Below the pieces are notes generated by a model. That model searched no databases. It saw nothing but the letters and a program-made list of their open reading frames with translations, and had not been told where the DNA came from. Below are positions 31,486-63,877 of a stretch of DNA of 64,000 nucleotides, piece after piece. The stretch's first letter is position 1, and each line of letters opens with the position of its first letter. This DNA is from a virus. The translations under genes and the position numbers were made by a program. Where the stretch lies: the IMG/VR virus record IMGVR_UViG_3300045988_173642, positions 35,986-99,985 of that record, one strand, 5' to 3'.

Positions 31486-31491
31486 TATGCA

Positions 31492-32275: not shown

Positions 32276-32320
32276 TAATATGGCAAATATGTCTGCCAGT
32301 TTGTATAGTAAGGGTTTACC

Positions 32321-33694: not shown

Positions 33695-34031
33695 TTTTCG
33701 CTTAATGTTAGTGTTCTTTTAAATGTTTGTTCATTGATTTGTTGAAACAAATAAACGAACAAATAAACAAATAAATGAACGAATGTTTGTTTAAACAATT
33801 CAACAAAAATATGATTGAATAATTAAATAGCCGATTTACAGACCATTAATCATTATTGTTGTCTCATTTCGATTACAAATTTAAATATTATAATTCATTT
33901 GAGCAAATAAATTCATGAATATTTGTTTGATTGTTTGTTTATTTAGTTGTATGTTTGTTGAAACAATTAAATAAATAAATAATTAAACAAATAAACAAAC
34001 GAATAAATGAATGTTTGTTTGCTTGTTTAAA
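33695..34031. repeat. AT-rich repeat arrays upstream of parA (candidate centromere/operator region)
   Basis: Two related blocks (33720-33800 and 33940-34030) made of ATGTTTGTT (4 copies), GTTGAAACAA (2 copies) and AAATAAACAAA/ACGAA words flank a central segment that carries a promoter box. Confidence 0.55.
33876..33883 (-). promoter_or_regulatory. Bacteroidota -7 box (TAAATTTG on the minus strand) with a -33 TTTG
   Basis: Plus strand caaattta, with CAAA at 33904-33907 (20-nt spacer). This would give parA a leader of about 175 nt that crosses one repeat block. Confidence 0.5.
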
Positions 34032-40386: not shown

Positions 40387-40815
40387 TCATCTCCTTGCAG
40401 ACTCCTGCATCATTCCCACCATAACAATTTTTTTTGGGACGGAGAGATGACGGCCGGCAGAGGCGGGGGCGGCACACACGGCTGCTCCGTAGTATATCAG
40501 AATGCGGGTAAGGTAATCGAGGGAGGAGCACCAAACGGGCAGTGGGGCGGCGTGGGAAACCGAGAGTGCGGCATTCACAGACATAAAATCGGCATCGGCG
40601 GGGATGGCGTCGCGGTCCGCGGTGGGCGCGTTGTGGGCTAACCAATCGCGTACATTTTCGCGTAGACTGGCGGGCGCATTGTATCGCACGCCCAAAATGG
40701 AAAAAGTTTTTCCGTTTTTTCTGCCGTCGGCAATATCAACCAGCGCCAGTCCTTCTGCGGGTGCTTCGTCGTCCTGTGCGGCGTCCATGTCGATGGTGAT
40801 AACTGTATTTTCCAT
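40387..40815 (-). CDS. hypothetical protein
   Basis: 142 aa. The N-terminal 25 aa include a 60-bp segment identical to part of 43057..44727. The GC-rich 3' half is open in other frames too, so the extent is uncertain. Confidence 0.45.
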   Translation of the reverse strand: MENTVITIDMDAAQDDEAPAEGLALVDIADGRKNGKTFSILGVRYNAPASLRENVRDWLAHNAPTADRDAIPADADFMSVNAALSVSHAAPLPVWCSSLDYLTRILIYYGAAVCAAPASAGRHLSVPKKIVMVGMMQESARR

Positions 40816-43056: not shown

Positions 43057-44727
43057 TTACACCCCGAACCACTCGCGCAAGCATGCCACGGCCTCTGGTG
43101 CGCTGGCCTGCCACTGCTGTTCTGCCTTGTTCCAGGTCGCGCCGTGCGCCTTGATGGCCTTGCGGTTGCGGTAGGTCGTTCGCCCATCGCCTACCACCGC
43201 CACGCCGTCGGCAATATCAACCAGCGCCAGTCCTTCTGCGGGTGCTTCGTCGTCCTGTGCGGCATCCTGAACGGCTGCGGCTGTATCGGTGCGCTCGTCC
43301 AACGTTGGGCTGGCTGGCGCCGTTGTTGGCGTGTAGCTGCGAAGGGTCCATACGTGACGGGCAATACTATCGGCTGTTGCAGTTGAGCTGTGAAAGAATA
43401 AAGGGCGCATATTGACGCCAAGGGCGTCGGCAAGGGCGTCCACCTCTTGCAACGAATAGCTATAATAGCCATTCTGCCCATATTCATTTTTAACATTCGC
43501 GGCCGGCACAACGGAGAGTACTTCAGCCAATATCTCATTGCGTGCTTCATCCGACATTTTCCGCTTGATTGCAATATCTCCAGCGTTGTTGCCCATAGTT
43601 TTGCGGGCAAAATCGACGAACTCAGAATAAAATACATCTGTCGAATCGTCCCAACCGTTGAACGTGTCGCGACGGCTGCAGAACAGATCTAAATCCGTTT
43701 TTTCCGAAAATTCTTCTTCGGTCGGTCCGTCGGTCCAAGTTACCTCGAAATCAGCGCCCCAGCCGCGGCGCACAGATACGGAGAACTTGACGCCGGGGAA
43801 AGCCGCGGTGCACATCGCCAAAATATTTGCCTTTCGCGCGTTGTCAATCTTTCGCGCCGTGGTCTTACCGTCCTTCTCCAGTTCTTCAACGTTGCGCATG
43901 AGGTGAGACCATCTGGCGCAGCGTTCGCGGTATTCGGCGAGGCGTGCCGCCTTCGCTTCGGCTTCCTGGCGTTCCTCTTCCGCTTTTCTGGCTTCTTCGG
44001 CCGCCTTAACGGCTGCCAATTCGTCGGCGAATAAGACAGGCCACACGATTGGTAGATATATATAGCGGGCATAATCATAGCCCTCAGAATCAATGAGGAA
44101 GTACTTGCCAGACGGTGAAACGACAAGCGCACCGACGGTGTAGAATGTGGCCCAGTCTTCTTCGTTGTACGTACCAGTAGAGGCATCGTCGGACACATCT
44201 TCAGAACGACTGAAACCGCGCAAGGTGTAGCGGGCCACAAGTTCATCCGCCAATTCTGGACGTTGGAAATATTCTTCCGTTACATTGATTATTCGTTCTA
44301 CGCAACAGAGTCGGGCAGGCTGCTCTCCTGCCTTGGTGTAGTAGGTGAGGTTATGCAGTTCCTCGAATAAGCCGCGTCCGCCGTCGCATTTGAGGCCGCT
44401 ATTGTCGGCCCAAAAGAAGCCGCCGACGGCGGGAATACCTTCGAGGCGGTCGGCCTCTTTAGCATGCTCTGCATACTTGGTGCGCTGGCGTGCGGCCTCT
44501 TTGTTTGCGATAAGCTCGCGAGCAGCGACTTCGGCTGCCTCTGTCGTGGCCTTGCCGAATGTCTTCACGTACGCCGGGCGTGAGATAGGCGACATAGGGC
44601 CGCACCAACCACACAAGCAAATATATTGTTCGTTATCGCTGTAATACTGTGCACGTTGAGCCTTGTCTTTTAAAACCTTAGATAAGTTCTCGGCAATCAC
44701 GTTAAGGGGTACATTCTTTGTAGTCAT
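43057..44727 (-). CDS. multidomain hypothetical protein (resembles polyvalent plasmid/ICE/phage proteins)
   Basis: 556 aa with a central coiled coil (AAVKAAEEARKAEEERQEAEAKAARLAEYRE). FPGVKFSVSVRRGWGADFEVTWTDGPTEEE and the C-terminal KAHGATWNKAEQQWQ block recall domains of polyvalent proteins; this is from memory and needs an HMM search. Confidence 0.4.
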   Translation of the reverse strand: MTTKNVPLNVIAENLSKVLKDKAQRAQYYSDNEQYICLCGWCGPMSPISRPAYVKTFGKATTEAAEVAARELIANKEAARQRTKYAEHAKEADRLEGIPAVGGFFWADNSGLKCDGGRGLFEELHNLTYYTKAGEQPARLCCVERIINVTEEYFQRPELADELVARYTLRGFSRSEDVSDDASTGTYNEEDWATFYTVGALVVSPSGKYFLIDSEGYDYARYIYLPIVWPVLFADELAAVKAAEEARKAEEERQEAEAKAARLAEYRERCARWSHLMRNVEELEKDGKTTARKIDNARKANILAMCTAAFPGVKFSVSVRRGWGADFEVTWTDGPTEEEFSEKTDLDLFCSRRDTFNGWDDSTDVFYSEFVDFARKTMGNNAGDIAIKRKMSDEARNEILAEVLSVVPAANVKNEYGQNGYYSYSLQEVDALADALGVNMRPLFFHSSTATADSIARHVWTLRSYTPTTAPASPTLDERTDTAAAVQDAAQDDEAPAEGLALVDIADGVAVVGDGRTTYRNRKAIKAHGATWNKAEQQWQASAPEAVACLREWFGV

Positions 44728-49439: not shown

Positions 49440-49570
49440 ATGGGCACGAAGGGCGTTTTTCTGATGATTCGTTTGATTATTTAATGATTTGTTTGTTTGT
49501 TGATTTATTCAAACGAATCAACAAACGAACAAACGTTTGTTTGAACAAATGAACGAAATAACAAGAGACT
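49440..49570. repeat. AT-rich island of CAAACGAA / TGTTTG words (third copy of this island type)
   Basis: gattcgtttgatt, gatttgtttgtttgttgattt, caaacgaatcaacaaacgaacaaacgtttgtttgaacaaatgaacgaaataac. Confidence 0.6.
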
Positions 49571-49610: not shown

Positions 49611-49747
49611 TAACTTTGCTCGTAATTAAATAATGTTAGTGTCTGCCCGTGGCTCGTGAGAGTAGCAGGCAGTGTTTCAAATCATTTATTATTTTTTTGT
49701 TTACAATTTTAGGCCGCTCGTCTGTGAAGATAGGCGGCCTTGTTTTT
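49611..49747 (+). ncRNA. candidate small non-coding unit U1 (promoter to terminator, about 120 nt)
   Basis: -7 TAACTTTG at 49611-49618 with a -33 TTTG at 49587-49590. Internal ctgcc-cgtgg-CTC-GTGA-GAG-tagc-aggcag hairpin. Terminator aggccgc..tct-GTGA-aga..gcggcct followed by tgttttt. No ORF longer than 8 codons. Confidence 0.45.
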
Positions 49748-50026: not shown

Positions 50027-50188
50027 TATCTTTGCAAGTGAAATAGTCAAGATTACATTTTACCGCTGCCAGCGGTCTGCGAAGATAGCTGGCGGGCTTT
50101 TAGGCAAAAATGCTGTAAGAACTAAGAACATAATTGTGTCTATGTAAAGAAGCCGCTCATCTGTGAAGATGGGCGGCTTCTATTTTTA
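50027..50188 (+). ncRNA. candidate small non-coding unit U3 (about 150 nt)
   Basis: -7 TATCTTTG at 50027-50034 with a -33 TTTG at 50004-50007. Internal gccagc..tct-GCGA-aga..gctggc hairpin. Terminator gaagccgc..tct-GTGA-aga..gcggcttc followed by tattttta. It converges on the 3' end of the fibre gene. Confidence 0.45.
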
Positions 50189-50209: not shown

Positions 50210-53200
50210 TTAGATTTGCAATTGGAAATCGTAAGAGGCTCCATCGTCTTTCTGCTTCCACGTGAGTTTTCCAGTCTTGTCTTGTCGGCCAGAGGTGAAG
50301 TGATAGAGGCGTTCAAAATAGGCGACATAGTCGGGCGTTGTGCCCATGTCTGGCGTGATGATGGTGGTGTCAGTGGGGTGTACCCCATTGTTGACGGCTG
50401 CATACCATCCGTCTGGAATCAATTCGCCCGTCGGCAAGTCTTGCGCCAGTTGGGCGTTTTGGTAATAAAGACCAAGCTGCTCAGGCGGCGTGTTGGAACT
50501 CGTGCCGCCATACCAATAGACCACGGCGGTGTCGGTCTTCGTCTGTTTTGGGAAAAACTGATAATAGGGTAGGGCATCTGGGTTGCCAATGTAAGCCACG
50601 GCCAACCAAACGTCATAGGCATTGTTGACGCTGATGATTTTCAAGCGCGAGATGGGAAAATAGGCCGCAGTGGTGGTGATTTTGTCAAGGCCGTTGGGGC
50701 CGAGATTATACATCTTCTGTCCGTCTTTACTGTAGAACTCCAAGATAGCACAACCGTCGGCATCTACGCCCACTTTGATATTTGGGAAAGCCAACGAGCC
50801 AAACATCTCTACCACGCCATCATGCACCTCTACGTGGCTGTCGTTGCCGTCAATGCGCATATTGCCGTTGATGACGCTGAATTTATTGCCCGACCAGATG
50901 TCGCCCTGGCGATTGACGCGCATAACGGCATCGGCAGGTGTTGCCCCACCAAACCAAAGCGGATATTCCATGTCTGTGCCGCCGCCAAAAGCACCGTAGG
51001 GCGTGCCGTTTTCGTCAGTGATCTGAATTTGACTGACCTGCAAGAATTGGATAAAGGCCGTCATGATGTCGGCGAAGGAGGTGCGCAGGGGGCGCAGGTC
51101 ATTGATAGGTTCCCAGAAGTCGTTGCCCGTTCCAAAAGGTTTATTCGCTGACTCAGACAGGATGCCATTGTGCGAAGGGCGGGCGAGATACCATTTCGGC
51201 GTGCCGCTCTTGAGGTCAGTCACACTGACTTCGTCGAGATAGCGGTTGCCGTCGGGGGCCGTGGTGTCGCCACTATCGTTGCGATAGAGCACGCCCGCTT
51301 CCCATTCTCCGCGACGCACTGTCACGCCAGTATATCCGCGTGGGCCTGGGGCACCAGGGGCGCCAGTGTCGCCCTTCGCGCCGTTTTGCCCGTCTTCGCC
51401 TTCGCGGTTTTGCGCGATGGTGGCGGTGGCGGTGGCGGTGCCGTAGTCCGTGACAAGCGTGAAGGTCATGAAAGCATCCTCAGGCGTTGCGCCGTCCACT
51501 TCCACGCCCACGAAGCCTTTCAGCGTGACGTGGTAGGTCAGGCTCTTACCATCGGCGGCAACAACGGCCGTGTACGTCAGTTCAACAGGCGTGGTGGCGT
51601 CGCCCGTTCCATAAGTGGCCTTTCCGCTACGCACATCGAGCGGCTGCGTGCCGGAAAACACTTGTGCCGTGATGTCGAAAGAGATGTCATCGGGGGCGGC
51701 CGTATCGTACCAGTCCGAGATGGCCACACTGATGATGTTCTTATTCAGCACAACGGTCAAGGCCGTGGGGTCGGCAGCATGGAAGGCCACGTTGCTCACG
51801 CCATAGGTACCATCGGAATAAGTGTAGAGCCATTGTTGCCACACCACGCGATTGGAAGGCGAAGGCGTCAGCGGTTCTGTCTGCCATTCGCCTTTGACGT
51901 AGGAGAGGTGGTCTTCAGCAACGCGGATGCCGTCGGGCAGGATTTCCACGGCAGGTGTGGAGAGGAAATAGAGCTGCTGCGTCACGATGGAGGGAACGCG
52001 GTCGAACTGGTCGACCATGCCCCACATATAGATGTTGCCCGTGGCTATACCTTCGCCCTCCAGTTCTTTGAGCGCTTCGACAAACTCCTTCTTCTCTTTG
52101 TCCCAAACACGCTGCAACATTGTGAAGCCGTTGAGCCAGCCGATGATGAGCTGCATGTTGTCTTGCGTGTACGTCCAATTGGTCATGCCGGCCAAGTGCA
52201 GCTGATAAGTCGTCGTGGTCAAGCAAGAGCGTTGGCGCGTGCTGTCGGTCTCATTGGCATAGCAGGCAAAGTGCATCGCTGGCTGCGGATGTGATTCATC
52301 CGTCCATCGGTTGCGGTCTTCCGCAGGGAGGTCGGCACAGGTGGCGGCACGCAGTTCATAGCGGAAGAACTGGTTGAGGGCTGGCGTGCCATCCGCTGCC
52401 GTCTGCTCCTTAATTGGGGCAGGCAACGTGGCTGGCGTATAAATTTCTTTTACGCGAAAATAGATGGTCGTGAAGCCTGCGAAATGGAAGTTGCCATCGT
52501 GAGGGTCAGAGGTGGAGAGGTCGTTGCGGCGGTTGGTGAAATGAAACACACCCTGGCATTTGTCGTTGACGGCCACGGCACCCACTTCCCCCGTTTCCAA
52601 TTTCAATTGCACCACGCCTTCGAGCGAAGTAAATCCGAGCGCGGAGAGCGCTTCATCGGCACCCGTCCACACCTGCTGGATGATACCGCCGCCCTGCGTC
52701 TGCCATTTATTCCCAACTGTGATGGTCGTGCGGTTGAAACGCAGTTCGGGCACCTCCAGGAATGACCTTGCAACGATGCCTTCAAATTCAGCATTGCCGT
52801 AGAAGTCGACCTTCGCGCCTTCAACGCCTTTGTTGAACGTACCGACCGTCAAATCGCCATGCAACGTTGTCGGTCGTCGTTTCTCTGGCGTTCCAACCGT
52901 CAGAGCGCCCTCCACGAGTGCATCCCCGTGGATGACCGTGTTGCCGAAGATGTCGGCCGCGCCGTTGACCTTCAGGTCGTGCATGGCGAGGTTGAAGGGC
53001 GTTTCGTCGTCGTGGCGCTTCGAGAGCGCATTGTCGTCCATGAGCTTCGGCGTGACGATTTTCGTGGCATCGTCTAAGGGGGTGTCGGCATCCCCGATGC
53101 CCGTTATCTCGCCCTGCTGTCCTTCAAACGTGATGCGGCCGCCGGAAACAATCTTCAGCGTGCTAACGAAGAGGTCGCGGAACACCGTGCCTGCCTTCAT

Positions 53201-53737
53201 CGTGAGGTCTTTGAGGAACGTCAAAGTTTGGTCGAAAACATCATAGCGATACCAGTCTGTTTCTGCTGGCCCCGCGTTGATGGCTTCATCCGAAGAAAGG
53301 TAGCCCGACACGATGCGCTGCCGCCAGACGCGCTTCTCTGTGCCGTTTTCGCCAGAGGAGGAGAGAATGCCTTGCAGGAAGATATAGTAATACTCCTCTG
53401 AGCCTATTTGCTGCTCTTCGGCGTTCCGTCCGTAGATGTCAATTTCCTCAGAGGGGAACACGATGTTAGCAGCGTTGCCAACGGATTCTGTGCGCGGAAT
53501 GGCGGCATAGACATATTTTTCTGTGTGTGTGTTGAACACTGTCGGAGAGGCTTGCAGTCGCCAGCGGCGGTAATTATGCCCGGCATCATAGTCGATGATG
53601 CCTTTGACGTACACAAGAATTTGCGCATTACCGACACACGAGGCCTGCACGTAGTCGGGCATGGCCAGGGCGTTGCGTTCGATGAAGAGCGCGTCGGGCG
53701 AAATCCAATAATCTGTGGTCGTTGCTTTCGTTGTCAT
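50210..53737 (-). CDS. tail fibre protein with a short collagen-like segment (1175 aa)
   Basis: Gly-X-Y run GEDGQNGAKGDTGAPGAPGPRGYTG (51326-51400) in a large beta-rich ORF in the fibre module. The upstream 99-aa ORF overlaps it by 4 nt. Confidence 0.6.
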   Translation of the reverse strand: MTTKATTTDYWISPDALFIERNALAMPDYVQASCVGNAQILVYVKGIIDYDAGHNYRRWRLQASPTVFNTHTEKYVYAAIPRTESVGNAANIVFPSEEIDIYGRNAEEQQIGSEEYYYIFLQGILSSSGENGTEKRVWRQRIVSGYLSSDEAINAGPAETDWYRYDVFDQTLTFLKDLTMKAGTVFRDLFVSTLKIVSGGRITFEGQQGEITGIGDADTPLDDATKIVTPKLMDDNALSKRHDDETPFNLAMHDLKVNGAADIFGNTVIHGDALVEGALTVGTPEKRRPTTLHGDLTVGTFNKGVEGAKVDFYGNAEFEGIVARSFLEVPELRFNRTTITVGNKWQTQGGGIIQQVWTGADEALSALGFTSLEGVVQLKLETGEVGAVAVNDKCQGVFHFTNRRNDLSTSDPHDGNFHFAGFTTIYFRVKEIYTPATLPAPIKEQTAADGTPALNQFFRYELRAATCADLPAEDRNRWTDESHPQPAMHFACYANETDSTRQRSCLTTTTYQLHLAGMTNWTYTQDNMQLIIGWLNGFTMLQRVWDKEKKEFVEALKELEGEGIATGNIYMWGMVDQFDRVPSIVTQQLYFLSTPAVEILPDGIRVAEDHLSYVKGEWQTEPLTPSPSNRVVWQQWLYTYSDGTYGVSNVAFHAADPTALTVVLNKNIISVAISDWYDTAAPDDISFDITAQVFSGTQPLDVRSGKATYGTGDATTPVELTYTAVVAADGKSLTYHVTLKGFVGVEVDGATPEDAFMTFTLVTDYGTATATATIAQNREGEDGQNGAKGDTGAPGAPGPRGYTGVTVRRGEWEAGVLYRNDSGDTTAPDGNRYLDEVSVTDLKSGTPKWYLARPSHNGILSESANKPFGTGNDFWEPINDLRPLRTSFADIMTAFIQFLQVSQIQITDENGTPYGAFGGGTDMEYPLWFGGATPADAVMRVNRQGDIWSGNKFSVINGNMRIDGNDSHVEVHDGVVEMFGSLAFPNIKVGVDADGCAILEFYSKDGQKMYNLGPNGLDKITTTAAYFPISRLKIISVNNAYDVWLAVAYIGNPDALPYYQFFPKQTKTDTAVVYWYGGTSSNTPPEQLGLYYQNAQLAQDLPTGELIPDGWYAAVNNGVHPTDTTIITPDMGTTPDYVAYFERLYHFTSGRQDKTGKLTWKQKDDGASYDFQLQI

Positions 53738-54033
53738 GAATGCTTGGAGATTTTAAGAATGAGACGCGAAAACGGCACCATCATGAGATAGGCCCAAGAA
53801 AGGCGGCTGGGATATTGAAGATCGGCATCCGCCGTGTGTGAGCGCAAGATGTGAAGGCGATAGAGCGCGTTGTGGGCCAGCCATTCCGCTTTCAGCGAGC
53901 GCAGACTGCGCTTCCAAACATTAGAATTAGGAAAGAGCGAGCGCACGTAACGCAATTTGTTGTCCATTTCCGCTTCGCTGTACTTATAGGATTGATGAAT
54001 GTGGAGATTGTTGTCAGTGATGGTGTAAATCAT
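53734..54033 (-). CDS. hypothetical protein
   Basis: 99-aa ORF, translationally coupled (ATGA) to the fibre gene. Confidence 0.55.
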   Translation of the reverse strand: MIYTITDNNLHIHQSYKYSEAEMDNKLRYVRSLFPNSNVWKRSLRSLKAEWLAHNALYRLHILRSHTADADLQYPSRLSWAYLMMVPFSRLILKISKHS

Positions 54034-54104: not shown

Positions 54105-54626
54105 TTAAGGTTTTTCATCGGACATTCCCATGTGTCGCGACAAAGAAAGGTGGTGCTGGAGGATGCGGATGTTATGGCGCAAATCGTCGAGCGTGGCGTG
54201 CTCTACGTCAATCATTGACACCAACACACAAACGTCATGCTCCGCTTCGGTGCGTGAATGATGGGCGTCTTGAGCGGGCGTGGGGGAAGGAGGAGAGGGG
54301 AGTGGTTGCACTGATGTTCCAGTCTGTTCCGCCAGTTCTTCCGACAACGCAAGCACATAATGTTTACCAGAATCATCCGTGCTGATTTCCACTTCCGGAT
54401 GCGCCTTCTTCAATCGTCGCAAAACGCCATCAATGGCGGAGCAGGGGATGCCAAGCTGATGAACAGTGTGTCCAGCAAGCGGAACGGCGCGGATGCGGTA
54501 GCCTGTGATGTTCTGCATGAACGCAGCGCAGGCGTTGAAAGCATGGAAAAACAATCCTTGCTGAATGAGATAGAGCCTGCGGCCATCCGTCTGTTCCTGC
54601 TCCGCAATGGCTTCAGCCACTTTCAT
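54105..54626 (-). CDS. MutS-domain-I-like small protein (candidate DGR accessory factor, MSL-type)
   Basis: RRLYLIQQGLFFHAFNACAAFMQNITGYRIRAVPLAGHTVHQLGIPCSAIDGVLRRL parallels E. coli MutS [32 protein letters not shown]...PMAGIPYHAVENYLAKL. The mismatch-binding F-x-E is FFH here. It overlaps the upstream ORF by 4 nt. Confidence 0.4.
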   Translation of the reverse strand: MKVAEAIAEQEQTDGRRLYLIQQGLFFHAFNACAAFMQNITGYRIRAVPLAGHTVHQLGIPCSAIDGVLRRLKKAHPEVEISTDDSGKHYVLALSEELAEQTGTSVQPLPSPPSPTPAQDAHHSRTEAEHDVCVLVSMIDVEHATLDDLRHNIRILQHHLSLSRHMGMSDEKP

Positions 54627-55081
54627 GCCTCTTCTATCTTGAAGGCCGGTTTGGCCAATGCCTTGCAGCGTTCGGCAAAGGCTGTCACTTGCTCCAGGTC
54701 GGTTGTGTCACCAAGCAATGCCTTGCGGTGAGCGCACAACTCTTCTGCATAAGAATATCGAGCGCCAATGAGATAAGCGGCCAAGGTATGATAATCTGAG
54801 ATGCGGTACACGGCCACAAGTTCTTTGATGAATGCCGCGTCAAGACTGTCAAATAAGCCCTGCTGATAAATGGTCTGCAGCAATGTCTGTGCCGTCATTC
54901 GTCCTTCATGCGAAATGGCCAGTGTGGTGCAACGAACGCGCTGCTCTCCTGCATCATTCTTATAAGATGAAGGGGAGAGGTTGATGGTCAAGAACTCCGT
55001 GTTCTTGGAATAAGAGCGAACGATGTGGCGGGGATTTTCCGTCAAATCTTCGCATTGGCGAAGGGGAATTTTTTCTCTCAT
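54623..55081 (-). CDS. hypothetical protein in the DGR operon
   Basis: 152-aa ORF, coupled by 4-nt overlaps to the RT upstream and the MutS-like ORF downstream. Confidence 0.6.
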   Translation of the reverse strand: MREKIPLRQCEDLTENPRHIVRSYSKNTEFLTINLSPSSYKNDAGEQRVRCTTLAISHEGRMTAQTLLQTIYQQGLFDSLDAAFIKELVAVYRISDYHTLAAYLIGARYSYAEELCAHRKALLGDTTDLEQVTAFAERCKALAKPAFKIEEA

Positions 55082-56553
55082 AAAATAGATGTTTGAATCA
55101 TTTTACATTTGTTTCGCAAACGAATCCGCTCAAAATGGCCATGAATGTAAAAGAACTCGTAGAAGACATGTTCAAAAATAGATAGTGTCGTTTTACGTAA
55201 GAGGTAAGACCTTTTATTCTTGAAAAAACCGAGGTACGAGTTGATGACTTGTTCCATGCGACGAAGGTCGCACAAGGATATAATGGATTTTTCGCGCAAC
55301 ATTTGGTTGAATCCAAAAACGCGCTCACGGAAACGAGCAACGGTGCGGCTGGACAGGTATATACGATAGTAACGGATGTAGGCTCCAACAAACATAACAC
55401 CATGTGAAGCTAATTGAAAATGATATTTGGTGACGTGAAGCGTAATACCAAGTTCAGACGACAGAAACAAGCGAGCGTCAATGATGAAGGCTTTTAAAGC
55501 AGACTTGCTGATGCAAATGACAACAAAATCATCTACAAAACGCGTGTAGTAGACCTCAAATCCACGGAGTTTGAACCATTGAATTACGAAATCATCAAAG
55601 AATGACATAAGGAAATTCACGAACACTTGCGTTGTGATATTCCCAATTGGCATTCCGAAGGCAACATCGCTGCCGAAAAGCGACTTATGGCGCTCAATAT
55701 GCTTGTGCCATTCATCTGGCGATGTGTTGAACACACAATTTTGCTCGGGACAATGAAACACGATGGTTTTGGATGCGGCGAACAATTGTTTCAAGTATTG
55801 GCCTTTGTATTGTTCGCGGATGAACGGTTCCAGTTTTGACCATAATATACGCTTGTCTATCGACATGAAGAACGAGACGATGTCGCCCTTAAACACCCAT
55901 GCAGGGCGGCTATAATTGCAAGTTGCCTTCTTGATGTTGTCATATACGGCCTTCTGAGCCGCAAGGGTGCCAAATCCTTTTCGGCAATTGAATGACACAT
56001 TACCTTGTTCAATAAAACGCCGCTCAAAATACGGATTGAGAAAAAGAATAATGAAATGATGAACGATGCGATCGCGAAAGCAAGCCGCAAAAACCTCTCT
56101 ATATTTCGGGTATTTCACAAGGAAACACGTGCTGACGCCTGGCTTATATGCTCCAGTATATAATTCATGTGCCAATGCTGGCAAATCATGTTCGGCTATC
56201 TCGCAATAGTCGATACATGCACGGCTGGTGCGTTTACGCTGGCAACAATCGTCAAAAGCAAAAAGCACAAGATCAAGAAAGTCGGTAGGAATATCAAAAG
56301 CGACGACAGGACGAACCACAAACCCGTTGTACTTATTGTTGTTGTTGATGTTGCCATTGCCGAAGTTGCTGTTCCAACTGTTGTTGCGGTTATACTCCGT
56401 GGCGCTCCATCGGTTGGCCTGAACGTTTACTTTGGGCATTGAAATAGCATAACCACTCCAGACATTTTCATACGAACCATTGCCGTATGAACATAAATCT
56501 AAATAGGTATGCCCACCTTTTAACAGTCCTCTCGGCTCTCTGTCACAATTCAT
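55078..56553 (-). CDS. DGR-type reverse transcriptase
   Basis: Motifs FRDRIVHH, VSFNCRKGFGT, GDIVSFFMSID, GMPIGNITTQVFVNFLMSFFDD (the DGR hallmark I/LGNxxSQ region) and YTRFVDDFVVI (YxDD). The ATG-started ORF runs through the TR; the RT body begins near residue 90. No ATG lies between the TR and the RT body, but an in-frame GTG is at 56268. Confidence 0.9.
   Translation of the reverse strand: MNCDREPRGLLKGGHTYLDLCSYGNGSYENVWSGYAISMPKVNVQANRWSATEYNRNNSWNSNFGNGNINNNNKYNGFVVRPVVAFDIPTDFLDLVLFAFDDCCQRKRTSRACIDYCEIAEHDLPALAHELYTGAYKPGVSTCFLVKYPKYREVFAACFRDRIVHHFIILFLNPYFERRFIEQGNVSFNCRKGFGTLAAQKAVYDNIKKATCNYSRPAWVFKGDIVSFFMSIDKRILWSKLEPFIREQYKGQYLKQLFAASKTIVFHCPEQNCVFNTSPDEWHKHIERHKSLFGSDVAFGMPIGNITTQVFVNFLMSFFDDFVIQWFKLRGFEVYYTRFVDDFVVICISKSALKAFIIDARLFLSSELGITLHVTKYHFQLASHGVMFVGAYIRYYRIYLSSRTVARFRERVFGFNQMLREKSIISLCDLRRMEQVINSYLGFFKNKRSYLLRKTTLSIFEHVFYEFFYIHGHFERIRLRNKCKMIQTSIL
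56296..56422 (-). repeat. DGR template repeat (TR), 127 bp
   Basis: Matches 57194-57320 at 114 of 127 positions. All 13 mismatches are plus-strand T in the TR, which is A on the coding strand. Read in frame it is rich in AAY codons (NRNNSWNSNFGNGNINNNNKYNG). Confidence 0.93.
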
Positions 56554-56577
56554 AAGACAAGTGATTTAAATGATTAT

Positions 56578-57039
56578 TTAAGCACTTACAGAATTACTAC
56601 CTTGCGAAAATCTGACCAGAGAAGATGCGCGCCATGCTGAAACCTGTAAGGAACAGGAAGCGACGAGCGACTTAATCTTCTTAAAATCATCATTACTGAT
56701 GCAGCCCAATGTCTTCATGATGCAAATAATAGATTTAATAGCATCTATATGAGCTGCAGCAATAGTCAGCTGCGGCACTCGTGAATACATATCAGCAAAT
56801 GCAATAGACAAACTCACCAATAAACCCGCGCATTCTGAATACATCGGATTGACCACAGGACGATATTTGACTGGACACGTCTTGTTGATTTGCGCCAAGA
56901 CGAGATACAATTGCTGAGAATCGCGAAACACCTGCTGCTGATGGATGGTCCGAACTTTCTCTTTCTTGAGCTTTTTACTTCTTTCTTTTTGTTCTGTTGT
57001 TATTTGTATATATTGTGGTTCTTTGTTGTCATTTACCAT
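56578..57039 (-). CDS. avd: accessory variability determinant (Avd)-like four-helix-bundle protein
   Basis: 153 aa between the target and the TR, with a basic N-terminus (KERSKKLKKEK). The helical body with FRDSQQLYLVLAQINKTCPVKYR...LSIAFADMYSR...IDAIKSIICIMKTLGCISNDDF fits the Avd / four-helix-bundle family pattern. Confidence 0.6.
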   Translation of the reverse strand: MVNDNKEPQYIQITTEQKERSKKLKKEKVRTIHQQQVFRDSQQLYLVLAQINKTCPVKYRPVVNPMYSECAGLLVSLSIAFADMYSRVPQLTIAAAHIDAIKSIICIMKTLGCISNDDFKKIKSLVASCSLQVSAWRASSLVRFSQGSNSVSA

Positions 57040-57073
57040 ACAATTTCCAATTTTATAATTAAATTGTTCACCG

Positions 57074-57081
57074 CAAAGTTA
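57074..57081 (-). promoter_or_regulatory. Bacteroidota promoter for avd-TR-RT (-7 TAACTTTG on the minus strand; -33 at 57102-57105)
   Basis: Plus strand caaagtta with a 20-nt spacer to CAAA; 35 nt upstream of the avd ATG. Confidence 0.6.
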
Positions 57082-57114
57082 ATAACAATTTTTGATATAA
57101 ACAAAAATAATTCA

Positions 57115-57171
57115 GCCGGCTTACGCCGGCAATGGCATTTTCGTTGAGCGACGCGCTAAAAAGCGCGTCGC
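57115..57171 (-). terminator. two GC-rich hairpins immediately downstream of the VR and target stop
   Basis: gcgacgcgc-taaaaa-gcgcgtcgc (57148-57171) has a 9-bp stem and lies 7 nt after the stop. gccggc-ttac-gccggc (57115-57130) has a GUAA loop on the minus strand and is followed there by a T-rich run. Confidence 0.6.
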
Positions 57172-57178
57172 AAAAAGG

Positions 57179-60100
57179 TTAAAGGATGAAGGGAAAAGCG
57201 ACGACAGGACGAACCACAAACCCGCTGTACTTATAGCTGTTGTAGACGTTGCCATCGCCGAAGTAGCTGCGCCAACTGTAGTAGCGGTCATACTCCGTGG
57301 CGCTCCATCGGTGGGCCTGACGAGGATTGCGCACCGGACAGCCCAGATTGGCGTCTTTCGCGCGTTTCTGCAAGTTTGCATAGAAAGGGCGGCGAGCATC
57401 CGTCGGCTCATGCGGTCGCAGTTCGTTGCCTTCGTCGGAAAAATCCGCCGTTGGCGTACCAGTGTCAGATGGCGTCAGCGCACGGCTATTGCGGAAGAAA
57501 ATATACAGACGGAACATATCACCGCTGCCATGCAGATACCATTTCCCTTTTTCAAACCACGGCGAAAGGCCGTCAATGGGCTTGCCGCCATTGCTCGGCT
57601 CGAACAGGGAACAAGCGTAGGCGGCAGGATAGGCTAACTGACGCCATCGTTTGTCGCCGCCGATATTTCCAAGCGCCACGCAGAGATCGGCCAGCTCTTC
57701 CATCGTTTCTGGAATGATATGGTCGCGTACTGCGGGAAGGTAGTCGAAGATGGTGTGACCATCGCTATCTGTCAACAGTCCTTCCCCGACATATTGTGTC
57801 AGAATACGATTGGCATGTGCCACGATTGAGGCGGTGTCCTTTTTGCCATCCCATCTGTTGGGCGCAGTATTACCTTCATAGACCTTGAATCCGTCACTTT
57901 CGTTATCATCATAAGCCTGCAAGTCTTTGATGTAATACGTTTTTTCGCCTTTTTCGTCCACCATACCAACATCTGTACAATCATTACAAGCGGGGATATT
58001 CGTCAAATCGTCATCAGAGACGGATAATGCTTCAGCAATCACCTTGCGTTCGTCGGGTGTAAATCCCAATTCACCAGTGCCTTGCGGATAAATACCCCAT
58101 GAAAACTCACTGATGGAGTTAGCCTTATCTGAGGACGTAATGGTCAGTTCTTCCACGTTTTCGATCAACACTTCATACAGTGTTTTGCCCGAATTATATT
58201 GCGCCGAGATTTCTTCATCCTGCAAATATTCGTTCAAAAGATTCGTTGGTAGGTCGGCATAAGGCGTCACCTTATATACCCAGCCAATAACCTTTTTACC
58301 CGGATATAACACGGAATCAAACTCACCATTATAGTAAGCGAAATCGCCTAATTTCGGAATGCGGTTGAAAAGTTTCAACACCACTGATGTGCTAAGCGAT
58401 TTTCCTCCAATCAAGGTAGCTGTAACAGTCAACGTCGCAGTTGGGTTATTACTTTCCTCGCCGACCGATGGCGCATGCAACACGCCAGTCTCTGCATCCA
58501 CCGTCACATTAAAATCATTCTCAGAGATAGACCACCTTAAATCCGTGAAGTTGTTGGCCATCGTTGGCAACACGGAACATTGGTAAGGATAATCTCCTGG
58601 TTCGGCAATAACAAAGCGTTGCGTAATGATATTCAAGCCTGTCACGCTGCGCAAAGAATAAGTGATATACAAATCATTATTCTCAGAGTCGATTTCGCCG
58701 AACTTGCGCAACAAGGCGAGTTTCAATTCTGCATCCACATTCTGCCCTTCTGTCACGGCAATTCGTCCATACAAAGAGCAATATAGAATCCCAGTTATAT
58801 AGAATAATACGCTTGGCGCAACATCTGTCCAATCAATTCCATCTATGCGCAACGTGCTCAACTTTGCGCCAGCCTCACTACATCCACGCACCAAAGAGCG
58901 CGTGTCAAAACCGCAATTGAGGGCGGTGATCGAAGTTAAACGAGCGTAGCCATCCAGCGTGAGCGTCTGTAACTGCGGCATATCGCGCACTTCAAGTTGT
59001 GAGAGCTCCGCACCGAAGCGAGCCACGGTAAGTTGTGGTGAGGACGGCATACGCACCTGCCCGTATTTCGTTCCGCGAAGGTCGAGTGTTTGCAGTCGTG
59101 AAGCCTTAGAGAGGTTGAATGTTCCGCTGGATGTGCTAACACCATTCAGAGACAGACGCTGCAAATTGGCGGCATCTACATCTATCTGCTTCGGCGCAAA
59201 CGCACTGCTACCTGCTTTAGGCTCAGCAATAAACTCCGTCATTCGGCGTCCCTGAATGGTGAAGTTATTATTGCCAACCACCATGTTACCCACGTTACCG
59301 ATGGAACGATAATAGTTAGTGGCAGCAAGTCCGACTGATGAGTCGCCAGGAATCGGTGTGGAAGCAGGATTTACTGTGAAGGCATAGTGTCGCCCCGGTA
59401 TCATGCGGAAATGCGGGTTGATGAGCGCACGGTCGCGCACGCCACAGGGATAGAGGTACTGATGAGGAACAAGGTCAAATGTGTATTCGCCTCCCGTGCG
59501 CCCAGAACCAGGCGTGAACTGCAAACCAGCGCTGGCGTCCACCAATCCAGTAGAACCAGTGTTCACACCACTTGAGAAGTCACCCCATGCCGCATACGAA
59601 CAGACAAGAGCCAGTCGGCGTGTCATATACTGAATCTCGCTCTCCAACTGGTCGCCAATGCCCTGCGTGACGGCGAGAATACCACGCGCCTGGTTGCCGT
59701 AACTCTCATAGCCCCACGATGCGGGCCAGTCGTATCGGATGCGCTGCTGTTCCGCCCATGCTACCTCGGCAAAGTACTTTTGAACTGAGAAGAAATACTT
59801 GTGTATACAACCGTATGGCGTTTGGCGTTGTGTCGTTGTAAGGCCGTCTATATTCTCATTCGCCCCAACCAACGTACACATGGCCGTCAACACTTCACGC
59901 ATATTGGCCGGCAATGCCGTTTGGTCGAGCGTTTCCCATGCCGCCTCCATGACATTGAACAAAGCCGATGCCGTGCCTTCATAGTCCTTCTGCTTTTTCA
60001 GTCCGTCCTTCGTGTCTTGAACGTCGAAATAACGAGAAAGGAAATACACCTTTGTCTGTCGTCCGTTGTTGTCAGTCTTAAAGATGGTATCAAGGTCATC

Positions 60101-63100
60101 TTGATAGAGCCAGCTCAAGCCTGTAGTTATATCAATGGTATAATACGTGTTCTTCGAACAATTGTCGGTACCAGCAATCATGAAGTTCACAAGATTATAA
60201 TGTACTTGATGATTCTTCTTGTTGAGATACTTTCCGCAGTGCTCGTTGAACGATGCTGCGATAGCCATTTGGAAACGAGTGTTCAACTTAGCATAGTCGC
60301 CTACATCCTCACTCTGCTTCCACTCCTCGTAGGTGGCTTTCGTGATGGCATCCGTGGCGAGATTACGAACGCCAGCCTTATATCCGTCGGAATCCGTCCA
60401 AGTTCCTGCATCAACGAATTTACCAGTGACATAGTTGAAACGCAGCAGATGAAAAGCTTCGTCACCATCGCGCAACCAATATTTCGTGGTCTGCATCTCG
60501 TCGAGCAATTGCGTATCGGCATCCGTTGCTCCAACGGCCGTGGCTCTGTCATATACGTTGGCATAATGCGCGTCAAACGCGGCGCGGTCGCCACGGAAAT
60601 ACTTCATACGCACATCGTGGGCATATATGAAGTTGCAGTAACGACGGAACAAAGCATCGTTCTTTGCCACAGGCGTTCCGTCATCGTTTGTCTTACCCAA
60701 CGAATACTCAAACGACTTGATGCCGTTATACACCCATGATTCATCATCCACGTTATACGTCACATCCTCGTCGGCCGGTACGCGAAAGTCACACAAAGGC
60801 AAGTTGTTATTCAAACCTTCAAAAGCAAACATTTTGCTCTTGTCGTAGCCCCACGTAGCCTTGTCACACTTGCCTGAACCAAATGTACCGAAGCCGACGA
60901 ACACTGGTTCCTTCTCGCCTTCTGGCTGGTTGAAGAAATAGTAATTGTCTTCATACACCGCAAAACGCGCACCCGTTTTGTTTGCAAACCAATCCGGCAG
61001 TTCGTCCTTGCATACAGTCTTCATCACATCGTTGTACAACCGCGTTGCGCCCATCTTGTGCGACTGCATCGGCGAAGCATAATTAATTTTATTGACGAGC
61101 TTCGTTGCCTTTGGACCACCGATCACAGGTGTATAGAACTGGCCGTGGTACATACCATTACCGTCAATCCAACCATCCAACACGTCAATCTGAAGGCGTT
61201 CTTTCTCCAGATCGCTCAATGTGCTGACAGCATCGCCCTGAATCTGGTTGCCGTCAAGATACAATGGGTTAGCCGCCGCCACCTCTTCTGTGAAGTTAGA
61301 CATAGAAGCCTTCCATCCGAAATCTTTGTGAAGTGTGGAGAATAGAATCACAATGCGATACGTCACCTTGTCCAGCTTCGTCTGCTCGTTGTTCCACCAA
61401 TACGTGTTGGCCGTACTTCCTTGCGCCGTGTTCATCAAACACTTCTTGCCGCCGAGCGTTCCCGATACATAAGCCAGATAAGCCGCCTTGCCGATAGTTC
61501 CAGACAATTCCGGAATATATTTCCCATTGTTGTCGTAATAGTCAATTCGCCAATAGCAAGCATAGCCAACCTTCTTGTCCTGGTTCATTTTATAGTTGTC
61601 TGTCCCGACGAGTGTCAGACAACGTTTGCCCTTCTCCTTCACCTTTCGGTAAGAGATACGTCCATTTCCGTCCAAGATGTCGTTGCGCTGACGGATGGCA
61701 TTCTTTGTCTCGGCGTCGGGGCGTGTGGCTGTGAAATTCTGAAGCACGTTTTGCGCGGACAACGTCACGCCACGGTAACAACGAATGGTGTAGATGTCGA
61801 GGTCGCATGAAGGATGGCCAAAGCGGATGCCGCCGTGTCCTTCGCCCTGAATCCATACGCCGTTGGTGTCCACGCTATATTGAACGGCACGCTGCGGTTT
61901 GCCGTTGACATATACCTTCACGGTGGGGCGGTTAGACGGCGTTTTATTGGGTGTCTGCCATTTAAATTCATCACTGCCCTTAGCCACAAGCGCTGGTGTG
62001 AGCGTCACAACGAGATGCACGCGTTTATCCTCCTCAAAAGCGAAATCTTGGTCATCCTCGTTCTGCTTTTCCTGCGCCCAGACCGCGCCAGTGAGCGGTT
62101 TGATGATGATGCCCAATTTCTCCAACGTGCTTTCGATGGTCTGAGAGATACTAATGACAGGGTCATCCTCTGCCGTAATGTTGCGCACGGCAAACTCCAT
62201 CTCCAACGACATGGCCGCAGATGGGTTTGTTTTAAACGCTTCAAATGGTTCGTAACCGATGGTCAGCGTGCGTCCGCTCGGAATGCGGAGCACCTTCACG
62301 CCATCATCATCCTGCATCCAGGCATCGCCAGTTCCGGAGAAACCATTCCAAACCGAAGGCACTTCCTCCTGCGTCTGCTTGTTGATGATGGTTTGATAGT
62401 GCGTCTCAGTGTTGTTGCGCACCTTTGGGTCAAGGTAGAAATGCGCACCCGCAACGGGCGAATAGTCGTTCTTGTTATCCACCGTGAACACCACAAAGCG
62501 ATTGCCTTGGCTCTCACGCAAGAAGTTTACAATCTCTTCGCCATTGTAACGAAACACACGCAAGTAAGCCTGATAAGACGCCGGACTCTCGCCCGTAGAT
62601 GAATTTTCAATTTCGATGGTAGTGTCAATCGGGTAACGCTCACCAACCACGGCTTTCTGTTCCGACACGAAATAAGAAGCCGTATAATCCAAATCGCCGT
62701 CGCCAGCGTTCGTGATACGGATGCTGACGGGCAGAGGGTCTGTGGCGGGCAGGGTAGGGGCTTCCGCGCTCTGAGGCACCCACACCGCAAAGTAGGAAAT
62801 GACCGTGCGCACATAGTTCTCCACCACGCTCTGCACGCCCTGTAACATGAGATAAGGCTGCGCCAGTTGCGACGGGTTTGCCGTTGCCTCGTTCACCACC
62901 ATAAATCGGTTGACCTGCACCTCTGACGACAATTCACCGCCCATGCCATCGTCACACGTCACCCATGCCGTCACGGTATGCACGCCATGCGACAATAATC
63001 CATAAGCCGTAATCTCCTGCTGCGTCCACGAATAAGGATTAGCTTCCGGCCGCTGCTCATCAGCCAGAAACGTCTTAGGCTCCATCGTCCATGTGCCAGA

Positions 63101-63877
63101 CGCACCCGTCATCGTGACGTGCAATTTCTTGTCAACGGCCCCCATCACGGAGAATGAAAACGGGAATCCTCCGTCTGAGGCAAGGATGCGTTTCGACCAG
63201 TCTGTCAGGTTTTTGACCGTTAGGTTGACGGCATTGATGGAGTAGATAAGGTCACCAAAAAACTCACGCTGCACGCCGTTTTCATCCTCATAATAAGAAG
63301 TCACTCTGATGCGCACATTCTGACGCCCCTCTGTGAGATATTTTCCGACATCCACACTCACTGGATAGGATGCTGCGCTCTCCGCGTCATAGTTTTCCTC
63401 TTGAGAAACTATATTAGTCTGCACGTAATGGTTTTGCCAGGTGTCAGAACCTTCCTTTTTGATGTCAACGCGCAACGTTCCTGGCACATCGCGATAGTTC
63501 ACGCGGTCGCCAAGCTGCGTAATCTTCAGTGCCATGTAGCGTACGTTGACGGTCAAGGCATCGCCCACCTTCACGTTTCGGTCGCCTTTGAGGTCAGAAG
63601 CCAAACGGATGGCATAGCTATCGCTTTCCACCATCTGATTAAACGACACTAAACCATTTGCGTCTGGCTCATAAGTGATATTATTAAACTGAACAGCCTT
63701 AACGCTTTTTTTCGCGTCTTGTTGCAGTTCTTGTATAGGCGTTACAATTTTCTGCACGAAATCCTCTGCCGTCAAATATTCATTCGTCGGCAAGCCTGCC
63801 GAGTCAATTTCTTCTCGTGCTTCTTCGTTGTTGGTCTTACGAAGTAAGTCGTTGATATTGGTAAAATCCTGTGCCAT
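57179..63877 (-). CDS. giant tail fibre / receptor-binding protein, DGR target (2232 aa)
   Basis: The C-terminal 42 codons form the VR, inside a DUF1566/C-type-lectin-like end (GKWYLHGSGDMF ... RWSATEY...FVVRPVVAF). Upstream are Big_2-like and LRR-like (LQRLSLNG..LQTLDLRG..LQTLTLDG) segments and a CotH-like stretch (AGTDNCSKNTYYTIDITTGLSWLYQDDLDTIF). Confidence 0.8.
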   Translation of the reverse strand: MAQDFTNINDLLRKTNNEEAREEIDSAGLPTNEYLTAEDFVQKIVTPIQELQQDAKKSVKAVQFNNITYEPDANGLVSFNQMVESDSYAIRLASDLKGDRNVKVGDALTVNVRYMALKITQLGDRVNYRDVPGTLRVDIKKEGSDTWQNHYVQTNIVSQEENYDAESAASYPVSVDVGKYLTEGRQNVRIRVTSYYEDENGVQREFFGDLIYSINAVNLTVKNLTDWSKRILASDGGFPFSFSVMGAVDKKLHVTMTGASGTWTMEPKTFLADEQRPEANPYSWTQQEITAYGLLSHGVHTVTAWVTCDDGMGGELSSEVQVNRFMVVNEATANPSQLAQPYLMLQGVQSVVENYVRTVISYFAVWVPQSAEAPTLPATDPLPVSIRITNAGDGDLDYTASYFVSEQKAVVGERYPIDTTIEIENSSTGESPASYQAYLRVFRYNGEEIVNFLRESQGNRFVVFTVDNKNDYSPVAGAHFYLDPKVRNNTETHYQTIINKQTQEEVPSVWNGFSGTGDAWMQDDDGVKVLRIPSGRTLTIGYEPFEAFKTNPSAAMSLEMEFAVRNITAEDDPVISISQTIESTLEKLGIIIKPLTGAVWAQEKQNEDDQDFAFEEDKRVHLVVTLTPALVAKGSDEFKWQTPNKTPSNRPTVKVYVNGKPQRAVQYSVDTNGVWIQGEGHGGIRFGHPSCDLDIYTIRCYRGVTLSAQNVLQNFTATRPDAETKNAIRQRNDILDGNGRISYRKVKEKGKRCLTLVGTDNYKMNQDKKVGYACYWRIDYYDNNGKYIPELSGTIGKAAYLAYVSGTLGGKKCLMNTAQGSTANTYWWNNEQTKLDKVTYRIVILFSTLHKDFGWKASMSNFTEEVAAANPLYLDGNQIQGDAVSTLSDLEKERLQIDVLDGWIDGNGMYHGQFYTPVIGGPKATKLVNKINYASPMQSHKMGATRLYNDVMKTVCKDELPDWFANKTGARFAVYEDNYYFFNQPEGEKEPVFVGFGTFGSGKCDKATWGYDKSKMFAFEGLNNNLPLCDFRVPADEDVTYNVDDESWVYNGIKSFEYSLGKTNDDGTPVAKNDALFRRYCNFIYAHDVRMKYFRGDRAAFDAHYANVYDRATAVGATDADTQLLDEMQTTKYWLRDGDEAFHLLRFNYVTGKFVDAGTWTDSDGYKAGVRNLATDAITKATYEEWKQSEDVGDYAKLNTRFQMAIAASFNEHCGKYLNKKNHQVHYNLVNFMIAGTDNCSKNTYYTIDITTGLSWLYQDDLDTIFKTDNNGRQTKVYFLSRYFDVQDTKDGLKKQKDYEGTASALFNVMEAAWETLDQTALPANMREVLTAMCTLVGANENIDGLTTTQRQTPYGCIHKYFFSVQKYFAEVAWAEQQRIRYDWPASWGYESYGNQARGILAVTQGIGDQLESEIQYMTRRLALVCSYAAWGDFSSGVNTGSTGLVDASAGLQFTPGSGRTGGEYTFDLVPHQYLYPCGVRDRALINPHFRMIPGRHYAFTVNPASTPIPGDSSVGLAATNYYRSIGNVGNMVVGNNNFTIQGRRMTEFIAEPKAGSSAFAPKQIDVDAANLQRLSLNGVSTSSGTFNLSKASRLQTLDLRGTKYGQVRMPSSPQLTVARFGAELSQLEVRDMPQLQTLTLDGYARLTSITALNCGFDTRSLVRGCSEAGAKLSTLRIDGIDWTDVAPSVLFYITGILYCSLYGRIAVTEGQNVDAELKLALLRKFGEIDSENNDLYITYSLRSVTGLNIITQRFVIAEPGDYPYQCSVLPTMANNFTDLRWSISENDFNVTVDAETGVLHAPSVGEESNNPTATLTVTATLIGGKSLSTSVVLKLFNRIPKLGDFAYYNGEFDSVLYPGKKVIGWVYKVTPYADLPTNLLNEYLQDEEISAQYNSGKTLYEVLIENVEELTITSSDKANSISEFSWGIYPQGTGELGFTPDERKVIAEALSVSDDDLTNIPACNDCTDVGMVDEKGEKTYYIKDLQAYDDNESDGFKVYEGNTAPNRWDGKKDTASIVAHANRILTQYVGEGLLTDSDGHTIFDYLPAVRDHIIPETMEELADLCVALGNIGGDKRWRQLAYPAAYACSLFEPSNGGKPIDGLSPWFEKGKWYLHGSGDMFRLYIFFRNSRALTPSDTGTPTADFSDEGNELRPHEPTDARRPFYANLQKRAKDANLGCPVRNPRQAHRWSATEYDRYYSWRSYFGDGNVYNSYKYSGFVVRPVVAFPFIL
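57194..57320 (-). repeat. DGR variable repeat (VR), 127 bp
   Basis: Counterpart of the TR, ending 12 nt before the target stop codon. The last 31 nt (coding direction) are identical to the TR and contain no A (an IMH-like G/C/T stretch: gggtttgtggttcgtcctgtcgtcgctttt). Confidence 0.93.

Follow-up and report, generated by a model that had tools for sequence, protein, structure and literature searches.

A diversity-generating retroelement of a Bacteroidales tailed phage, predicted to vary the C-terminal tip of a 2,232-residue protein

Diversity-generating retroelements (DGRs) are well characterised in phage BPP-1, the prototype, and are especially dense in gut phages; in Bacteroides phages they have been described repeatedly, in Hankyphage, the Bacuni phages, the Quimbyviridae and crAss-like phages. 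A study of BS-TP1 and further temperate Bacteroides phages reported a multi-domain target that lacks annotation and is about 2,000 aa long, followed by a four-helix-bundle protein and a reverse transcriptase (RT) (Gut Microbes 2025, PMC12694917). Here we describe an element of this well-known kind in a 64,000-nucleotide stretch of viral DNA, referred to as the window (positions 35,986 to 99,985 of IMG/VR record IMGVR_UViG_3300045988_173642), in which a first-pass annotation had noticed a template repeat (TR) and a variable repeat (VR). The cassette has the canonical DGR layout, in the order target with VR, hairpin, avd, TR and RT, all on the minus strand. Its sequence is very probably that of a complete DGR of a Bacteroidales tailed phage with a genome of roughly 93-102 kb, and it would diversify the tip of a 2,232-aa protein of the tail module.

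The closest cultured relative is BS-TP1 (PQ571274), in which target (gp27), gp26 and RT (gp25) have the same order and strand as their counterparts in the window. The gp26 product, annotated as a 'four helix bundle protein', stands at the position of the Avd-like gene, the annotated RT coding sequence contains the TR in frame, the TR/VR mismatches are at adenines, and a 10-bp GC hairpin of unrelated sequence lies past the target stop codon at the same position. The sequences themselves are only distantly related: the RTs are 43% identical, and the targets 25.5% identical over 89% of their length (2,187 vs 2,232 aa), with an insertion in the C-terminal domain that is roughly 35 aa longer in BS-TP1. 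Gene gp27 follows tape measure, baseplate-hub and tail-fibre genes and precedes a baseplate-J-like gene. Downstream of the RT the two differ, with a DUF4376 protein in BS-TP1 and small unannotated open reading frames (ORFs) and a 1,175-aa collagen-repeat protein in the window. A megablast search of the cassette against 50,697 phage records (INPHARED) gave no nucleotide match, and the relatives there are at the protein level only. No close prophage was found when a genome collection was scanned with the single RT sequence, and a scan of that collection with a family profile of the RT gave many distant relatives, mostly in Bacteroidales.

The TR lies at 56296-56422 and the VR at 57194-57320, both on the minus strand and each 127 nt long. 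The first-pass annotation had reported a 127-bp pair at a constant offset of 898 bp with 114 identities and 13 differences, and our ungapped comparison returns the same counts. At all 13 differing sites the TR base is A on the coding (minus) strand, and on that strand the VR has G at six sites, T at five and C at two; the earlier description in plus-strand terms (T in the TR; C, A or G in the VR) agrees with this recount. Adenines make up 38 of the 127 TR bases, and the share of them that is substituted, put earlier at about one third, is 13/38 (34%). The adenine restriction had been left to a statistical test; a hypergeometric calculation gives P = 2.8e-8 for all 13 differences falling on A. 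Homology between the copies ends sharply on both sides. The opposing case raised in the annotation, a dispersed repeat or mismatches at other template bases, failed, as there are only two copies and zero non-A mismatches: repeat searches found no third copy within the 64-kb window, and a scan ignoring A positions found no second, remote VR there, the best other site having ≤41/89 non-A matches.

By codon position, ten of the 13 differences fall on the first base and the other three on the second, leaving third bases unchanged. From TR to VR twelve residues are altered, as had been counted before, and the codons concerned, described as mostly AAY (Asn), are 11 Asn codons and one Ile codon. Over the whole TR the adenines are distributed 19:18:1 among codon positions 1:2:3, and only one codon (AAG) is able to mutate to a stop. 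With up to about 25 variable codons, 13 of which are AAY, the maximum repertoire of the TR is about 6.6e21 proteins.

We compared the window with 15 related loci, each with its own TR/VR pair, to give a family of 16. Two of these are on IMG/VR contigs of 93 and 98 kb, with RTs 96-97% identical to that of the window, and 13 further loci came from a metagenome scan with the target C-terminal domain. In the two closest contigs the mismatches at TR adenines are 10/10 and 19/19. Across the ungapped cores of the 16 loci, 192/194 mismatches are on TR adenines; in gapped local alignments, which extend into fuzzy 5' edges, the count is 258/280 against an A content of 31% (binomial P about 1e-103). The copy adjacent to the RT is always the conserved one (16/16 loci). 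We note that L010 (5064-5183 / 5944-6063) and L015 (5066-5189 / 6003-6123) have one non-adenine (C) TR/VR difference each, and that the TR and VR of L015 also differ by 3 nt in length; such non-canonical TR/VR events are also reported by Wu et al. (PMC5758913).

Eight TR columns differ by lineage among the window and its two closest relatives, and the cognate VR follows its own TR at all of them. At seven the VR is identical to its TR, and at the eighth the TR of L002 has A and its VR has G, which is an allowed change. Moreover, G-to-T changes inside the 31-nt 3' segment of the relatives' TRs recur in the cognate VRs (columns 100 and 106). Such tracking of each TR's lineage-specific changes by its own VR is the hallmark of repeated transfer in one direction, from TR to VR. 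Pairwise identity among the close relatives is 96-97% in the TR and 93-100% in the flanks (93-98% in the flanking target gene), as against 78-84% in the VR, where there are 21-28 differences per 127 nt. The presence of such divergent VRs in near-identical genomes argues that homing has been repeated since these genomes diverged. Comparison of VRs across related genomes, proposed earlier as a check, thus finds the adenine rule to hold and the VR to be hypervariable.

The RT proper is encoded at 55078-56259 (minus strand), as aa 99-491 of the 491-aa ORF at 55078-56553. It matches Pfam RVT_1 (E 3.5e-12) and, from aa 99, PHROG phrog_1423 (E 8.5e-60); the best PDB match is 8ub7_A, the RT of BPP-1 (bRT), at E 5.2e-18, with the next match at 7e-4. 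The motif PIGNITTQ aligns to PIGSLTSQ of bRT, with T where bRT has S, and RFVDD aligns to RYMDD. The catalytic RFVDD is intact and the catalytic motifs are invariant in the family alignment. Matches of the RT by tblastn include Bordetella, Bacteroides and other phages, and the Bacteroides ones have documented DGRs. With models of group II introns and retrons the window RT stays far under the cut-offs. By these sequence matches, the RT next to the repeats belongs to the DGR clade.

Between the VR and the TR is an Avd-like accessory gene of 153 aa (56578-57039, minus strand). Its product matches PHROG phrog_3206 'Avd protein of DGR' (E 1.4e-4) and, below the cut-off of 40 bits, Pfam bAvd PF22296 (E 0.016, 16 bits, profile positions 14-105 of 107); bAvd is matched by 7/8 family homologues. 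Neither the single sequence nor a family profile of the Avd-like protein has a PDB match. A promoter-like motif, TTTG-N20-TAACTTTG, lies at 57074-57105 (minus strand), 34 nt upstream of the avd ATG. It was found as a regular-expression match to the Bacteroidetes-type promoter consensus; the window has it, as does L002, the only close relative scanned, and in more distant relatives it is not kept as a strict consensus. The motif suggests a promoter upstream of avd. An adjacent DGR-type RT, an Avd-like gene, a VR at the 3' end of a large ORF and A-restricted variation in 15 related loci together support the earlier reading of the two repeats as the TR and VR of a DGR.

The 3' end of the VR is a 31-nt segment free of A (57194-57224, minus strand) that is identical to TR 56296-56326 and resembles an initiation of mutagenic homing (IMH) sequence. 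The first-pass annotation had taken it for an IMH-type homing boundary; the segment is indeed A-free and invariant, although adenine mutagenesis cannot alter such a tail, so its invariance in one genome proves nothing alone, and no difference between IMH and IMH* is visible. When the two are identical, recognition must extend downstream (Wu et al., PMC5758913). The sequence downstream is therefore the likely mark that separates recipient from donor, and there the VR is followed by a stop codon and a conserved GC hairpin for which the TR has no equivalent.

This GC-rich hairpin, GCGACGCGCT-TTTT-AGCGCGTCGC, is at 57148-57171 (minus strand), 22 nt 3' of the VR end and 7 nt past the stop codon, with a perfect 10-bp stem. 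A GC-rich hairpin stands at the same place past the stop codon in all family loci, with differing stem sequences. When ten distinct sequences are aligned, both partners have changed at three stem pairs and no pair shows a one-sided change; paired cells amount to 83%, compared with 18-53% in slid controls. We considered the hairpin as an intrinsic terminator and rejected this, as no family member has a T-run after it. A second hairpin at 57115-57130 (minus strand), GCCGGC-GTAA-GCCGGC followed by the T-rich TGAATTATTT, was flagged as terminator-like and is probably the terminator of the target gene. The 111-nt stretch that holds both hairpins (57090-57200) has a DNA fold of -26.5 kcal/mol (z -5.4). 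In BPP-1 the hairpin is required for efficient homing, and the published phage examples have 7-10 bp GC stems, 4-nt GRNA loops and a distance of 4-34 bp (Guo et al., PMC3240598). The 10-bp GC stem, the 4-nt loop size and the 22-nt distance in the window fit this norm, although the loop sequence differs; a GC inverted repeat downstream of the VR is present in only 34% of DGRs (Wu et al., PMC5758913). The hairpin may have a role in homing.

The order of the cassette is that of mtd-avd-TR-brt in BPP-1, namely target with VR, avd, TR and RT, and the RT is homologous to bRT. The two elements also have in common adenine-specific mutagenesis, AAY codons as its substrate and a GC-rich inverted repeat 3' of the VR. 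They differ in the target, which has 2,232 aa in the window, whereas Mtd of BPP-1 is a small fibre protein, and in the variable domain, which is probably of the DUF1566/Lcl_C (CLec2) type rather than the Mtd type. In the window, moreover, IMH equals IMH*, the hairpin loop is TTTT and not GAAA/GRNA, and there is no non-coding spacer between TR and RT, the TR being in frame with the RT. The departures from established DGR biology (identical IMH and IMH*, a T-rich hairpin loop and a TR in the RT frame) are small only.

The target gene is the ORF at 57179-63877 (minus strand; 2,232 aa), with the VR in its last 47 codons. The VR starts at the third base of codon 2186 and runs through codon 2228, after which come PFIL and a stop codon; the substituted residues are within aa 2189-2218. 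As a whole the protein matches PHROG phrog_24896, of unknown function (E 1.7e-54), and it has a weak LRR_4 match in Pfam at aa 1571-1603 (E 0.028) and a conserved AGTDNxSKNTYY...QDDLDTIF motif. A weak match to Lcl_C at aa 2186-2225 is sub-threshold, at E 0.075 for the full-length protein and 0.006 for the C-terminal 400 aa, and the translated TR also matches Lcl_C weakly (E 0.005). A family profile of the C-terminal domain matches the C-terminal domain of Legionella Lcl (8q4e) at E 0.014, and distant homologues of the domain found with a family profile (E 1e-38 to 1e-7) carry precomputed Pfam PF07603 assignments. In the homologue alignment the scaffold (W, ATE, W, F, G, K, VRPVVAF) does not vary, and free variation is seen in the AAY-encoded columns. 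These weak, sub-threshold profile matches suggest that the VR falls in the DUF1566/Lcl_C (CLec2) class, category 'd' of Wu et al., for which the DGR of Legionella serves as the example. Proteins of the window's element are rare in a large protein collection, where the C-terminal 400 aa have 15 homologues, the best 67% identical. Single-sequence searches of the PDB gave no match for the target C-terminus or for the full-length target, and a family profile of the target gave only weak matches there to leucine-rich-repeat (LRR) proteins (E 1.6-9).

Two further groups of Bacteroides DGRs resemble parts of this element. The Bacteroides uniformis siphophages Bacuni_F1 and Bacuni_F2 (PMC8143477) likewise have a Bacteroidales host, a bAvd gene, a DUF1566-type VR and A-only mismatches, with RTs 32-35% identical to that of the window. 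They differ in having a target of about 250 aa and a TR that is not fused to the RT; it is in a separate 81-codon ORF ('putative DUF1566 domain protein') overlapping the RT start by 4 nt. The Bacteroides DGR proteins of 'domain group 3' (Macadangdang et al., bioRxiv 2024.11.15.621889) are over 2,000 aa long, with CotH-kinase-like, carbohydrate-binding and LRR parts. The window target is comparable in its length of >2,000 aa, its multi-domain make-up, its diversified and probably ligand-binding C-terminal end and its weak LRR-like stretch. It differs in that no CotH-like domain was detected by sequence, and membership of the group is not established. Such a domain had been hinted at by the conserved motif and by the 2024 preprint, and we rejected it as a candidate at the sequence level only, with no Pfam match at E up to 10 and none in the PDB by single sequence or family profile; the published assignment used predicted structures.

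We propose, by analogy with BPP-1, that the avd-TR-RT unit would be transcribed, and that the RT and the Avd-like protein would copy TR RNA into cDNA with random bases opposite template adenines. This cDNA would then replace the VR at the 3' end of the neighbouring 2,232-aa gene, with the A-free 31-nt segment common to TR and VR guiding homing and the VR-only GC hairpin helping it. The expected outcome is variation in the C-terminal DUF1566/Lcl_C-like domain, of C-type-lectin type.

Could the repeats be an ordinary duplication or two paralogous segments, set apart by ordinary mutation, selection or gene conversion and owing nothing to reverse transcription? That two 127-nt copies stand 898 nt apart is the sole point for it, and it is effectively refuted by an adenine restriction with the small chance probabilities given above for the window and for the family, by the same asymmetry in 16 loci, with the copy beside the RT always conserved, and by the canonical DGR cassette around the repeats. 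A fossil DGR, active in ancestors and dead in this genome, so that the 13 differences are a frozen record, is also improbable. A single assembled sequence cannot show ongoing activity, and the Avd-like protein of the window matches Avd profiles weakly. However, the RT, avd and target ORFs are all intact and the catalytic motifs of the RT are invariant in the family; genomes 93-98% alike in their flanks carry very different VRs, which argues for homing since they diverged; and non-A differences between TR and VR, which are expected to build up after inactivation, number zero. A complete DGR remains the preferred reading, and several points weigh against it in part. TR and VR are the same across the IMH-like segment, so that the donor/recipient distinction is not visible in the repeat, and the hairpin loop (TTTT here and in most family members) is not the 5'-GRNA consensus of BPP-1. 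For this particular genome, activity is indicated by comparison with relatives. For the window's own proteins, the Avd and C-type-lectin assignments come from sub-threshold profile matches, and structure prediction with AlphaFold2 gave a pLDDT of 44 for the C-terminal 400 aa of the target (16 sequences) and 56 for the C-terminal 182 aa (52 sequences). A Foldseek search of the latter model against the PDB returned no match with E below 0.8, leaving the C-type-lectin fold unconfirmed. The target yielded no recognised domain of the receptor-binding or tail-fibre kind, and the protein is placed in the tail by synteny only.

The last two points bear on what the target does. A working DGR might diversify a protein that is not a binder of host receptors, such as a large virion or injected protein with a lectin-like tip that binds mucus, host glycans or some other bacterial surface structure. 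This would fit the 'domain group 3' proteins of Bacteroides, with their CotH-kinase-like and LRR domains; variable proteins of over 2,000 aa with such parts and with carbohydrate-binding ones are those that Macadangdang et al. describe, and the target of the window has its weak LRR match and its AGTDNxSKNTYY...QDDLDTIF motif. The missing tail-fibre or receptor-binding domain also favours it, as does the separate 1,175-aa collagen-repeat protein, tail-fibre-like by weak PHROG matches, that is encoded just downstream of the cassette. We think this rather unlikely all the same, although much less so than a dead element. The CotH similarity is unconfirmed by sequence, and the BS-TP1 homologue sits between tail-fibre/baseplate-hub genes and a baseplate-J-like gene. 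Those phage DGR targets with C-type-lectin tips that have been studied, as in BPP-1, are receptor-binding proteins. Synteny thus suggests a tail or receptor-binding role. With the target among tail-fibre and baseplate genes, it most likely binds a ligand on the host surface, and the element would let the phage keep or change its receptor specificity.

The position of the TR within the RT frame deserves comment. The TR forms codons 44-86 of the 491-aa ORF 56553-55078, behind a leader (56423-56553, minus strand) that begins with the ATG at 56553-56551 and runs for 43 codons and two bases to the TR; the leader has a second in-frame ATG at 56439-56437. Past the TR the sole canonical alternative start is a GTG at 56268-56266, and homology to bRT and to the Bacuni RT starts about 12 codons past the TR. 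In 16/16 family loci the RT frame extends upstream through the TR, in the frame of the VR, to a conserved ATG, which lies one to a few codons past a stop (17 codons in L008); in 4/16 loci the interval from the TR to the RT core lacks any GTG, TTG or ATG. The lengths from ATG to TR are 111, 126, 135, 138 and 141 nt, all multiples of three. None of the 12 distinct leader sequences (12/12) has an in-frame stop, while the other frames have 2-4 and 0-5 stops, and the chance of an open leader frame is 0.03-0.13 per sequence. A chance open frame, which we considered for the leader, is unlikely given the in-frame indels and the lack of stops. The RT frame likewise encloses the whole TR in 41 of the 57 more distant RT relatives taken from genomes. 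The loci examined for an in-frame TR are the window (56296-56553), L001-L017, L003, L022 and L023-L102.

This arrangement is common and catalogued: 'group 3' of DiGReF (2012) lists elements whose TR overlaps an annotated RT ORF at its 5' end, and GenBank annotates the BS-TP1 RT with the TR inside the coding sequence. Whether the TR is translated as part of the RT, beyond serving as a non-coding template, is another matter. The open frame makes this a possibility, on balance a doubtful one; substitutions in the leader show no excess at third codon positions, unlike those in the RT, which counts against a functional peptide. If it is translated, the N-terminus of the RT would carry an Asn-rich remnant of the lectin domain of the target, and the ribosome making the RT would cross the very RNA segment that is to be copied, which could couple translation to capture of the template in cis or regulate it. 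We note a different configuration in L021 (MT836212.1, 1669-2991), a distant gut-phage DGR with a 39% identical RT. There the TR overlaps the beginning of the RT frame in another phase, and the RT frame has no ATG before the conserved N-terminal helix, which suggests a non-ATG start or a frameshift from the TR-containing ORF.

Elsewhere the window encodes a tape measure protein of 1,862 aa (415-6003), a PAPS-reductase-like protein (8907-10055), a weak match to large terminase (11702-13702), a sliding-clamp-like protein (19078-20265) and an NAD-dependent DNA ligase (35746-37443). The 1,175-aa collagen-repeat, tail-fibre-like protein is at 50210-53737, and between it and the RT are three small ORFs of 152, 173 and 99 aa (54105-55081 and 53734-54033, minus strand) with no Pfam or PHROG match. 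No Rfam matches or tRNA genes were found across the whole window.

Several other repeats are present. Just beyond the start of a 519-aa ORF with no PHROG match (29540-31099) are two arrays of the 22-bp unit CCTCCCTATTTATGTACCAACT, at 31146-31251 and 31400-31483, with four copies each in opposite orientation and about 150 nt apart, the last copy of the first array being truncated; their appearance is that of replication-origin iterons or of some other array bound by a protein. Beside them are a 35-nt tandem pair (31491-31568) and a 105-nt direct repeat (31548-31652 and 32306-32410; 83% identical, 758 nt apart). A 64-nt repeat at 40723-40786 and 43204-43267 (98% identical, 2.5 kb apart), in the minus-strand ORFs 40387-40815 and 43057-44727, may stem from a recent duplication or from a domain that the two ORFs share. 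A 35-nt element of a hairpin plus T-run (GCCGCTCGTCTGTGAAGATAGGCGGC...TTTTT) occurs three times just downstream of the 1,175-aa gene, at 49713-49747, 50068-50102 and 50152-50186, and these look like repeated terminators. Intergenic A/T-rich stretches of AAACAAAC- and GTTTGTTT-like units are at 7183-7252, 33723-34020 and 49473-49558.

The element described here is a clean and complete case of a gut Bacteroidales phage equipped for targeted hypermutation. To the Bacteroides-phage DGRs already reported with targets of roughly 2,000 aa it adds a well-resolved family of 16 loci, with a common hairpin on the target side and a non-consensus, T-rich loop. It also raises two questions, as to which ligand the giant variable protein binds and whether the in-frame TR is translated; the answer to neither would overturn the present understanding of DGRs.

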